Source: a virus. From it: a stretch of DNA of 16,064 nt. Made by a program: the position numbers. Positions 6,001 through 9,000 of the stretch are shown here, in pieces. The stretch lies in the UHGV virus genome UHGV-1966638, one strand, 5' to 3'. Each line of letters opens with the position of its first letter. The first letter of the stretch is position 1.

Positions 6001-9000
6001 GTTTTGTTTACCGGAAAAAGTGCCGCGATTAACGGTTATTCCGTGGCAGGAACGGCGGAAAGCTGGCGCGACAGCGTGGCGCGGCTGGCTGGTGGCAATC
6101 CGTTCATGATGCTGGGTATAGCGACGTCATTATCCGCGCCATTAGTCGGGCTGACAGGCGCTGATGGTTTTGGCGTGCATTTTTTCGAGCAATCCACAGC
6201 AGGCAAGACCACAACGCAGAGCATCGCGTCGAGCTTGTGGGGCGATCCTGAGGCGCTGCGATTAACCTGGTACGGAACGGCGCTGGGGATAGCTAACGAA
6301 GCAGAAGCACACAATCACGGACTCCTTCCACTGGACGAGATAGGGCAGGCAGGAAGCCCCCGTGACGTGTACGTATCCTCATACACTTTGTTCAATGGAT
6401 TCGGAAAATTACAGGGGGCAAAGGACGGCGGCAACAGAGAGCTGAAAAACTGGCGGACCGTTGCTATCAGCACCGGAGAGGTGGATATCGAAACATACCT
6501 CAAAACGTCGGGGATAAAAGTTAAGGTCGGGCAACTTGTGCGCCTGCTCAATATCCCGATTCAAAAAGCCACGCAGTTACACGAATACAGCAACGGAAAG
6601 GATCACGCTGACGCATTGAAGGCGGCATGGCAAGAAAACCACGGCGCAGCGGGGCGTGAGTGGATTAAATGGCTTGCGGAGAACCAGCAGGAAGCTAAGG
6701 ACGCGGTTAGAGAGAGCCGTGCACGCTGGCGAAATATCATTCCAGACAATTACGGTGAGCAGGTCCACCGCGTGGGTGAACGTTTCTCCATACTGGAGGC
6801 CGCGCTTGTGCTTTCCGGTCATGTAACTGGCTGGTCCGTGCAGGAATGCCGCGATGCAATTCAGTATGTATTTAATGCCTGGGTAAAAGAATTTGGCACG
6901 GGCAACAAGGAACACAAACAGATCATTGAGCAGGCAGAGGCGTTTCTTGCTGCCTACGGCATGAGCCGTTTTGCGCCCGTTGATTATGACCCAGCCAGCC
7001 TGCCGATTTCTGAGCTGTACGGCTACAGGGATTCGGGAAGCCGTTACGATGAACCATTGTTGTTTTACGTATTATCGGAGCCGTTTAAATCGAAAGTAGC
7101 GGAAGGCTTCAACAAGGATACCGTTGCAAAAATACTCCACGAAGCTGGAATGCTGAAACGACCAGAGAGCGGGAGAGGATGGAAAATCAAGACCCCACGC
7201 CTTAAGAACCTTAATGGAGCGCAATTATGGGCCTACGGGATGTTGTTCGCTAATCACGATGAGGAGGGAAGCGATTAACTACGCGTATATAAGATGAAAA
7301 AATGTTGCCTCAGTTGCCTCAGTTGCCTCAAACAGTAATAAATATATATATGTGATTGATTTATATGTTTTATTTCTGTTTTTACTGAGGCAACAATTGC
7401 TCATTTTGAGGCAACAATTACCCATTTTGAGGCAACAACTGCCCATTTTGAGGCAACACGGCTGACAGGTTTTGTTTGTCTGAACGGAACCAACGTGATG
7501 TTGCCTCAAATACCCCCTATTGTTGCCTCAAATCGACATGATGTCGCCTCAATTTTTTTGTGATTATTAATCAAATCAATACGTTAAGACGTTTGAGGCA
7601 ACTGAGGCAACTGAGGCGACTGAGGCGACACGTTTTTCCTATATATATAAAGCGTGTGAATGATGTGATGCCTGGAAGGAGACGATTCATGATCAAAAAA
7701 ACAAGTGAAACGGAATCTGTTGTGAGGTTCGTATCGGTACGAGGCAGAGCCACGCTTTATATACCTGACGAACATCTGCATCACTGCGATGAAAAACATA
7801 TCCCGATCCTGATTGTCTGGAAGCGAACGGTATACGCCGATGTGACATGGCTGAATGATTCGCTGATGTTGATACACCGTGACCTGTTTGAACGTGAAGA
7901 GTTCCGGCGGGATATTGAAGAGCGGGCAGAAAAAATCTATGAGAAATATTCAGCAAACAGCAAAAGATCCGCACGGGCAATCGCTCACCATTTCATGACG
8001 CTGTATGACCTGAAAGCGGAAGATGCAGAAAAAGCGGCATGTGATTTATTCGATATGACAATGGGGATTATCCAGGAGTACCGGAACAAGGAGCGCAGAC
8101 CATGACAGCACAGATTGCAGCTTACGGGCGGCTGGTGGACGACCCGCAGGTAAAACAGACCAGCAAGGGAACAGCGATGACGCTGGCGCGTATGGCGGTA
8201 TCACTGCCATGCAGTCAGGCACAGGACGGACAGGCGACGTTATGGCTATCAGTCCTGGCATTTGGTAAGCAGGCCGACGCGCTGGCGAGACATGAAAAAG
8301 GCGACCTTATCAGCGTGGCGGGTAACATGCAGATCAGCCAGTGGACCGGACAGAACGGGGAAACACGGCAGGGCTGGCAGGTTATCGCTGACAGCGTAAT
8401 CAGTGCCCGTTCGGTGCGCCCTGGCGGGAAGCGGGGGCAACAGGGGAAGGCGACTGAAGCACTGGAAAGAGCAAAACGACAGACCGGACAGCAGGGAAAT
8501 CAGCCACCAGCGGGAGGTGATGACCCGTTCTCTGACGATATTCCGTTCTGAATGACAGCACAACATGAACCAGCAGACCGACCGTTCACCAACAGAGGTA
8601 ATTCAAGCAACCTTAAACACATCATAGGAGGTGAACACGTTGATTAAAGACTATATCCATAAAAATGACAACGGACGACCTTTACAAGAGCCTGCAATCC
8701 CGTTGCAATGCCCCTTTCATCTGGTAAGATGCAGGGGCGTTTTTGCATGACTCAACGATCACCGATAGGTAAAAAATGTCCACACTTAAACCCGCCATCT
8801 TCTCTTTCTTTTCCGGCTCAGGTTTTCTAGATCTTGGCTTCGAAAACTCAGGCTACGAGGTGGTTTTTGTGAATGAATTTCACCCACCATTTATGGATGC
8901 TTACAAGCACTCACGAGCGGTGATGAACAAACCTATCCCACGTTTTGGATATGCAGAAGAGAGCATCGAGGAAGTTGATCACAATAAGTTGAAAGATAAT

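Follow-up and report, generated by a model that had tools for sequence, protein, structure and literature searches.

The DNA analyzed is a stretch of 16,064 nucleotides (nt) of the virus genome UHGV-1966638, termed the window throughout, and the element in question is an array of short repeats at 7304-7629 placed directly downstream of the gene for a 712-amino acid replication protein, Pri-Rep (hereafter Rep). The array together with its flanks (7279-7668) is very likely a Rep-dependent replication origin of a phage-inducible chromosomal island (PICI).

Repeat array downstream of the Pri-Rep gene

The 9-mer TGAGGC(A/G)AC is present 14 times in 7304-7629 and a further five times at 13291-13402. 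With one mismatch or fewer to TGAGGCAAC the window contains 23 matches, 14 of them within 7304-7629, compared with 3.98 +/- 1.89 expected, and none of 200 dinucleotide-preserving shuffles reached the count of 23. The matches group into four sets (A to D) separated by two A+T-rich blocks (AT1 and AT2), with a partial distal copy (primed labels) near the right end of the island. The features are as follows.

5140-7278, plus strand: Pri-Rep gene, 712 amino acids, probable initiator and helicase; its C-terminal ~110 residues would specify the 9-mer, judged from co-variation
7279-7303: left outer flank, TACGCGTATATAAGATGAAAAAATG, mirroring the right flank
7304-7330, minus strand: set A, three tandem 9-mers with a 9-bp period, reading GTTGCCTCA on the plus strand; part of module u1
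7331-7385: AT1, 84% A+T, part of u1; candidate melting site
7386-7457, plus strand: set B, four copies of TGAGGCAAC at 21-bp spacing; part of u1
7458-7499: central spacer between u1 and u2, 52% A+T
7500-7551, minus strand: set C, three copies at 22/21-bp spacing; part of module u2
7552-7593: AT2, 79% A+T, part of u2, with a match to the integration host factor (IHF) consensus inside
7594-7629, plus strand: set D, four tandem 9-mers, two of TGAGGCAAC followed by two of TGAGGCGAC; part of u2
7630-7668: right outer flank, CACGTTTTTCCTATATATATAAAGCGTGTGAATGAT, which stays with u2 wherever u2 sits
13266-13441, plus strand: u2', distal copy of u2 (176 bp), ~300 bp before attR
13291-13342: set C', three copies
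13343-13384: AT2'
13385-13402: set D', two tandem copies, with the flank continuing to 13441

An earlier note on this DNA, made from the sequence alone, had described four iteron sets with tandem 9-mers at both ends in opposite orientation and 21-22-bp-spaced iterons inside, and sets A to D bear out these repeat sets; for set B, Tandem Repeats Finder returns a period of 21 and 3.5 copies. The A+T-rich core that the note placed at the center is not there, as the central spacer has the average composition of the window and the A+T-rich DNA is divided between the two blocks on either side of it. Each block is flanked by one tandem set and one spaced set, and the most fitting description of the origin region is a pair of modules built as mirror images, u1 being composed of set A, AT1 and set B, and u2 of set C, AT2 and set D together with the conserved flank CACGTTTTTCCTATATATATAAAG. 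The dyad symmetry extends ~20 nt past sets A and D, with inverted-repeat arms at 7286-7330 and 7603-7647. A flank of the left type also follows the rep stop codon in relatives with other 9-mers, and the right outer flank has related counterparts after set D in other genera and also in distal copies of u2. The single-strand folding z-score of -13.6 merely restates the inverted symmetry and is not used as evidence.

The rep stop codon ends at 7278 and set A starts 26 nt after it; the same rep-adjacent position of the array is seen in almost all relatives examined. Open reading frames (ORFs) called mechanically do run across the array, as had been remarked before (7279-7509 minus, 7560-8105 plus, 7571-7753 minus and 7584-7877 minus), and in the RefSeq annotation of near-identical Escherichia coli loci nothing is called from the end of the DUF927 gene up to the following gene (window 7689-8105). 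The repeat array explains why gene callers may put spurious ORFs here.

Across the 16-kb window, duplex stability over 40 steps is lowest in the stretch that begins at 7336 within AT1 (-38.5 kcal/mol compared with a mean of -55.5 and a standard deviation of 4.2 kcal/mol), and in the ranking of duplex instability across the window AT1 is placed first, AT2' second and AT2 fifth. AT1, as the most easily melted DNA of the window, is the likeliest opening site. The IHF-consensus match AATCAATACGTTA lies at 7574-7586 in AT2, and of 14 AT2 blocks examined eight have this motif at the same place and in the same orientation. These eight belong to three specificity groups (TGAGGCAAC, TGGGACAAG and TGGGACAAC), whereas only one of 12 AT1 blocks has the motif. 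Given the IHF-like site in AT2, u2 may serve as an auxiliary module in which Rep binds to bent DNA, or else as a second site of opening. GATC clusters are absent from the origin, a terminator scan of 7200-7750 gives a 5-bp stem inside set C as its sole call, a search of the origin region against Rfam returns no RNA family, and a tRNA search of the window is likewise negative.

Rep and the co-variation of its C-terminal region with the 9-mer

The only Pfam family detected in Rep is DUF927 (E 3.8e-42), and the protein matches PHROG 1139, annotated as DNA primase, with an E value of 4e-141. Against the PDB it is related to the SaPIbov1 replication initiator helicase (PDB code 8tch; E 1.2e-13 with the single sequence and 1.3e-17 with a profile) and, by profile, to Cch of the staphylococcal cassette chromosome mec (PDB code 5dgk; E 2.6e-9); Foldseek places the predicted Rep structure with both 8tch and 5dgk (E 6.8e-12, probability 1.0). 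The DUF927-containing Cch is itself related to SaPIbov1 Rep (PMC7581432). The AlphaFold model of Rep has a mean predicted local distance difference test (pLDDT) score of 68, and residues 1-130 together with the greater part of 150-370 and of 470-585 are modelled well. In E. coli, a cluster of 255 member proteins that shares 100% identity with Rep is named only "DUF927 domain-containing protein."

Loci encoding the same Rep family were collected from several collections (Escherichia, Citrobacter, Klebsiella, Symbiopectobacterium, Pseudomonas and Sodalis) and are labelled with L-numbers. The spacing of the array is kept in these relatives, with a tandem period of 9, a distance from set A to set B of 62-64 nt start to start and from set C to set D of 51-54 nt, and the spaced sets have an 11- or 21-bp spacing. 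The 9-mer itself changes, and at least seven versions are found among the relatives (TGAGGCAAC, TGGGACAAG, TGGGACAAC, TAACCCGCA, TGAACCAAC, TGGTACAAC and TGAAACCAC); an island with a 45%-identical Rep has a repeat of the GGTGGATA type. The number of repeats also varies as the earlier note had suggested, and across E. coli islands carrying the sets the differences are whole 9-mers, with 2-3 copies in set A, 3-5 in set D and 2-3 in set D'. A separate motif, (T)TCTGGCTGGC, is seen near the origin in different genera (L005 ~11870, L002 ~12310, L003 ~12100, L006 ~12115 and L031 ~6682), where it sits between the modules or after u2.

Which version of the 9-mer an island has follows the ~110 residues at the C-terminal end of Rep, with no such agreement in the remainder of the protein. 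Where two Rep proteins share a 9-mer, their residues 601-712 are 86-100% identical, even in pairs whose N-terminal domains have an identity of only 36-61%. The converse is illustrated by the Rep proteins of the window and L022, with 86-87% identity in the N-terminal domain and core, 35% identity in the tail and unrelated 9-mers. Columns of the alignment that discriminate the groups, being fixed within each of four enteric specificity groups with at least three states among them, fall within residues 604-705 in nine of nine cases. In Rep proteins of the Staphylococcus aureus pathogenicity islands (SaPIs) the C-terminal domain reads the origin repeats (PMC9371898). A co-variation of Rep tail and 9-mer is what a repeat-reading C-terminal domain would be expected to produce, and it supports recognition of the 9-mer by this domain. 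The likeness to pri-rep/ori modules that had been proposed for the region is thus upheld by the position of the array, its DUF927 partner protein and the comparison of 9-mers with Rep tails.

The anatomy, the protein homology and the co-variation form the established part of the assignment, and the remaining mechanism is modelled on the SaPI Rep proteins. By this analogy the C-terminal domain of Pri-Rep would bind TGAGGC(A/G)AC, and the oppositely oriented sets around the A+T block would position Rep hexamers on either side. The hexamers would then melt the A+T block without ATP and self-load as 3'-5' helicases (PMC9371898, PMC7581432), and priming could be carried out by the N-terminal part of Rep or by a host primase.

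Displaced and duplicated copies of module u2

The distal element u2' is 94% identical to u2 over 137 nt and copies only sets C and D and the block between them; the origin modules (7304-7629) and u2' (13291-13402) are 5.8 kb apart. The earlier note had seen two copies of the region with four and two tandem 9-mers; these counts are correct for sets D and D', and the second copy is reduced to module u2. The repeats of u2' match the resident Rep, which it should therefore still bind, and the distal copy is a probable Rep-binding site with an unproven role. A 344-bp block (13094-13437) is missing from sister islands without the distal copy.

The relatives show four arrangements of the modules. In arrangement (i) u1 and u2 are adjacent (L003, L005, L006, L010-13, L024, L028 and L030). 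In arrangement (ii) the origin is split with u1 at rep and the sole u2 near the right end, the repeats of the two modules being matched, and this is seen in the four specificity groups given below, with L045 also among the split relatives; cargo genes are inserted in these islands at the point of the central spacer.

TGAGGCAAC: L018/19 (Rep 92% identical to that of the window), u2 4-4.5 kb from u1
TGGGACAAG: Escherichia albertii L002 and L020/21, u2 2.2 kb from u1
TGAACCAAC: L031, a 12-kb circular record, u2 1.9 kb from u1
TAACCCGC: at least 12 IMG/VR loci, u2 7.8-9.3 kb from u1

In arrangement (iii), that of the window, u2 is present in both places (also L001, L008, L009 and L014), and in arrangement (iv) a full origin of the island's own is combined with a distal u2 carrying a foreign 9-mer (L015, L022/23, L028/29 and L102). 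In a survey of 80 IMG/VR loci u2 is nearly always present, with at least 49 loci in which u1 and u2 are adjacent and at least 12 in which the sole matched u2 lies 7.8-9.3 kb downstream; these counts are lower bounds because the automated module detector does not pick up u2 copies in which AT2 is long or the middle 9-mer degenerate. In the literature searched, no description of split PICI origins was found. One of the islands with a foreign copy, L028/L029 (~5300-20600), is a capsid-forming PICI (cfPICI) with the same Rep family, located inside a Shiga toxin (Stx) prophage, with the lysis/terS genes on one side of it and the portal gene on the other; the u2 at its right end has the 9-mer TAACCCGC.

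On the comparison of these arrangements u2' most likely arose by recombination between islands with u2 adjacent to u1 and islands with u2 at the right end. In the simplest history, recombination within shared cargo genes would give the products with u2 in both places and with mismatched copies, and it also predicts a reciprocal product with u1 alone.

A rival possibility, to which somewhat less than an even chance is given, is that u2' is a neutral scar of sister-island recombination with no role of its own. Among 11 complete E. coli genomes that have this origin only five contain the copy, the place of the copy in relation to the shared right-end segment varies between islands, the distal copies of arrangement (iv) are of foreign specificity, and the reciprocal product seems to exist in the candidate islands L026, L034 and L035, in which u2 is not seen within 10 kb of u1. 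Against a scar, the repeat positions of u2 and of diverged distal copies stay intact while their surroundings diverge (one difference in 54 repeat positions compared with 21 in 111 other positions; Fisher p 0.001-0.015), at least two sequence classes of distal copy speak for repeated placement at the same end, and in the split islands of all four specificity groups the right-end module is the sole u2 and matches the resident Rep. The same split islands bear on a rather doubtful alternative in which u1 alone is the origin and u2 and u2' are Rep-binding control elements acting at a distance, either as an enhancer like the crr element of phage P4 or by titration and handcuffing as in P1 and R6K. 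For this speak the constant place of u1 next to rep compared with the 0, 1.9, 2.2, 4-4.5 or 8-9 kb that separate u2 with matched 9-mers from it, the conserved outer flank that u2 retains at every location, and the difference between AT1, clearly the least stable block, and AT2, distinguished by a conserved IHF-like motif and not just by A+T richness. Such a division of labor sits less well with the full published anatomy of a PICI origin in u2, which could thus fire alone, and with the mirror-image relationship of u1 and u2, which suggests equivalent roles.

An origin function is dispensed with altogether if the repeats are operator arrays for the downstream operon of the hypothetical gene and the single-stranded DNA-binding protein (SSB) gene, or recognition sites for packaging, and this is considered very improbable. 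Repeat arrays of this kind often serve also as autoregulatory operators, a conserved TATA-rich flank follows set D, and the distal copy adjoins a right-end segment that is common to many PICIs and cfPICIs and is perhaps a packaging site. Against this reading, the 9-mer co-varies with the C-terminal domain of a helicase-type Rep, and in the split islands only 17 nt separate set B from the start of the downstream gene, with neither u2 nor its flank in between. The sigma-70 promoter consensus was searched for in 7200-7750 and not found, which leaves a promoter role of the TATA-rich flank unsupported. In addition, cfPICIs that encode their own terminase have the same Rep-matched architecture, and neither a lambda cosN-like site nor phage similarity was found.

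Assignment of 7279-7668 as a Rep-dependent PICI origin is the preferred reading, and several points weigh against it. Neither this Rep allele nor another DUF927 Rep of enterobacteria is known to have been studied experimentally. Residues 588-712 of the Rep model have a pLDDT below 50, leaving a C-terminal winged-helix fold unsupported by the model. A search with the DnaA box query TTATNCACA gives no match in 7250-7700, and the negative promoter search described above also counts here. The foreign 9-mers of arrangement (iv) show that the distal module can be a recombination passenger, and the absence of the distal copy from six of the 11 complete E. coli genomes with a window-type origin means that u2' is not essential. 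The description of u2' as an essential crr analogue was accordingly downgraded, many islands with the same Rep and origin being without the copy and some having mismatched copies. The one Gram-negative PICI replicon that has been shown to work is that of EcCICFT073 (PMC6092414), whose Rep may belong to another family.

A two-part origin in PICIs and cfPICIs of this Rep family is put forward tentatively, as a possibility on the unlikely side. Here u2 would be a separable, distance-independent cis element like P4 crr, placed either next to the opening site or, at a distance of up to 9 kb, at the right end, which adjoins attP and int once the island has circularized. The foreign specificity of u2 in some islands would stem from exchange of the right end by recombination. 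If this reading is correct, a foreign u2 could allow an island to bind or titrate the Rep of another island in the same cell, or to be replicated by it, with cross-replication or incompatibility between satellites as the outcome.

The non-coding tail just past u2' (13437-13621) is found with 75-89% identity at the right ends of PICIs and cfPICIs in ~790 of 5,426 complete E. coli genomes and is a candidate for a packaging site or another end function. Neither a phage match nor a lambda cosN was found in the tail, and the origin and right-end segment have no match among 50,697 phage records. For a lambda-type cos, GGGCGGCGACCT with up to three mismatches gives eight matches compared with 9.2 expected, none of them near the repeats.

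Island context and comparison with known origins

The carrier of the array is very probably a roughly 14-kb PICI at tRNA-Gly in E. coli. Window positions 2077-13755 are 99.7% identical to the island at tRNA-Gly (glyU) of E. coli JNEC-KY203, the homology stops at 13755, and attL in L001 is the 3' end of tRNA-Gly. The remaining features of the island are as follows.

1-1215, plus strand: integrase (int)
1858-2061, plus strand: AlpA-like regulator, following int
Between the AlpA-like gene and Rep, plus strand: Rha, Icd/Ash and DUF4222, in gene order
7689-8105, plus strand: 138-amino acid gene with no assigned function, first gene after the array
Downstream of the 138-amino acid gene, plus strand: SSB, Dcm methylase and Q-like antiterminator, in gene order
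13740-13756 (about): attR core, repeating the tRNA-Gly 3' end and marking the right end of the island

The gene set matches that described for Gram-negative PICIs (PMC6092414), with a size of roughly 10-15 kb, an att site, one direction of transcription, int, alpA and pri-rep, and no full set of structural or lysis genes. Sister islands at glyU, cspD-clpS and dinD have ProQ and PerC genes. The same Rep family is present in circular records of 12-16 kb deposited as "plasmids" with int still present, an indirect sign that Rep and the origin may drive autonomous replication. Two of these, L030 (NZ_CP069874.1, 15,995 bp) and L031 (NZ_CP148430.1, 12,152 bp), were deposited as small non-mobilizable plasmids and are circular cfPICI/PICI genomes with an integrase, a hint that the sequenced cultures contained these elements in episomal or excised form.

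Several further features of the island were observed. The Rha-family gene (2127-2917) is split into overlapping frames (2127-2765 and 2672-2917), and PGAP calls the identical gene of L001 frameshifted. A C4 antisense RNA (Rfam RF01695; 77.7 bits compared with a gathering score of 45) is located at 4106-4193 on the plus strand inside the 504-amino acid Icd/Ash ORF (2904-4418), an arrangement that resembles the c4-icd-ant immunity region of P1/P7, here on a PICI. The 5' end of a small ORF is duplicated as a perfect 30-nt direct repeat (8576-8605 and 11584-11613), and between the copies lies a 3-kb cassette with a Dcm-type methylase (8776-9915), an overlapping 358-amino acid ORF without a family match (9851-10927) and 12-nt tandem repeats (11239-11444). 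This cassette takes the place held by the ProQ/PerC genes in sister islands and may be an inserted restriction-modification or defence cassette. Past the Q-like antiterminator gene (12596-12994), a 39-nt repeat and three short hairpins (CCCTC...GAGGG, CCCCT...GGGGG) at 13124-13211 could form a Q-utilization or terminator region. Two copies of AAATGTGTATAG near attR (13656-13679) and the similar GTGTATAG/GCGTATAG near attL (L001 420-443) are probable arm-type sites of the integrase. A second element directly follows attR (13756-16064), with a 531-amino acid tyrosine recombinase (13890-15485) and then an ORF matching phrog_23516 (15486 onward); this recombinase element also neighbors the island in L018, and the elements on both sides of attR look like a tandem array of integrated elements at tRNA-Gly.

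The analysis places an origin, and a likely specificity determinant in Rep residues ~601-712 together with the 9-mer, for a Rep family that is widespread in Enterobacteriaceae satellites and is now annotated only by its DUF927 domain, with the origin region unannotated. The seven or more natural pairs of Rep tail and 9-mer are material on how a self-loading helicase reads its origin, and the separable u2 raises the question of how satellite replication is controlled and how co-resident satellites might interfere with each other.

The closest known systems are the SaPI/PICI origins, which are located immediately 3' of rep and have two oppositely pointing repeat sets around an A+T-rich region (PMC6092414, PMC9371898). 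This anatomy is encountered twice in the window, as A(-)x3/AT1/B(+)x4 and C(-)x3/AT2/D(+)x4. The initiator is of the same type, a self-loading helicase of the DUF927/SaPIbov1 Rep family, and the island context int-alpA-...-pri-rep-ori is also shared. Specificity lies in the Rep C-terminal domain in the SaPI proteins, and the matching co-variation suggests the same here. The SaPI/PICI repeats are 5-6-mers whereas those of the window are 9-mers, and the 9-mer was not found in the supplements of PMC6092414. The text of the published description gives two sets and one A+T region, in contrast to the two mirrored modules of the window with one tandem (9-bp) and one two-helical-turn (21-bp) set each, and unlike the origins described there u2 is displaceable to, or duplicated at, the right end.

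The alpha protein of P4 is a fused primase-helicase-origin-binding protein, and its short repeat occurs in two cis elements, ori and crr, that are both needed for replication. These elements and the protein were reportedly described by Flensburg and Calendar in 1987 and by Ziegelin et al. in 1993. As in P4, the initiator repeat of the window is present in two cis elements several kb apart on a satellite of roughly 11-14 kb, one of the two elements adjoins the replication gene, and Rep may by analogy also be a fused primase-helicase-origin-binding protein. Rep does not fall in the P4 alpha family, having only DUF927 by Pfam and PDB matches to SaPIbov1 Rep and Cch. P4 needs both elements whereas the distal copy is missing from many islands with the same origin as the window, and unlike P4 each module here has an inverted-repeat design with its own A+T block.

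In the iteron plasmids, extra clusters of initiator repeats (P1 incA; R6K gamma, alpha and beta) influence initiation through titration, looping or handcuffing, and the origins contain IHF sites and, typically, DnaA boxes. Clusters of initiator repeats away from the opening site are the trait shared with the window. The initiators of these plasmids are small winged-helix Rep proteins that act on direct repeats of 17-22 bp, in contrast to the 712-amino acid helicase-type protein and the inverted 9-mer sets seen here. A classical iteron theta plasmid origin was rejected on the lack of a DnaA box in 7250-7700, the inverted sets and the lack of a small Rep_3-type initiator. The origin is an ordinary member of the known SaPI/PICI type, to which the two-module design, the co-variation of Rep tail and 9-mer, and the displaced, duplicated and mismatched copies of u2 are added.

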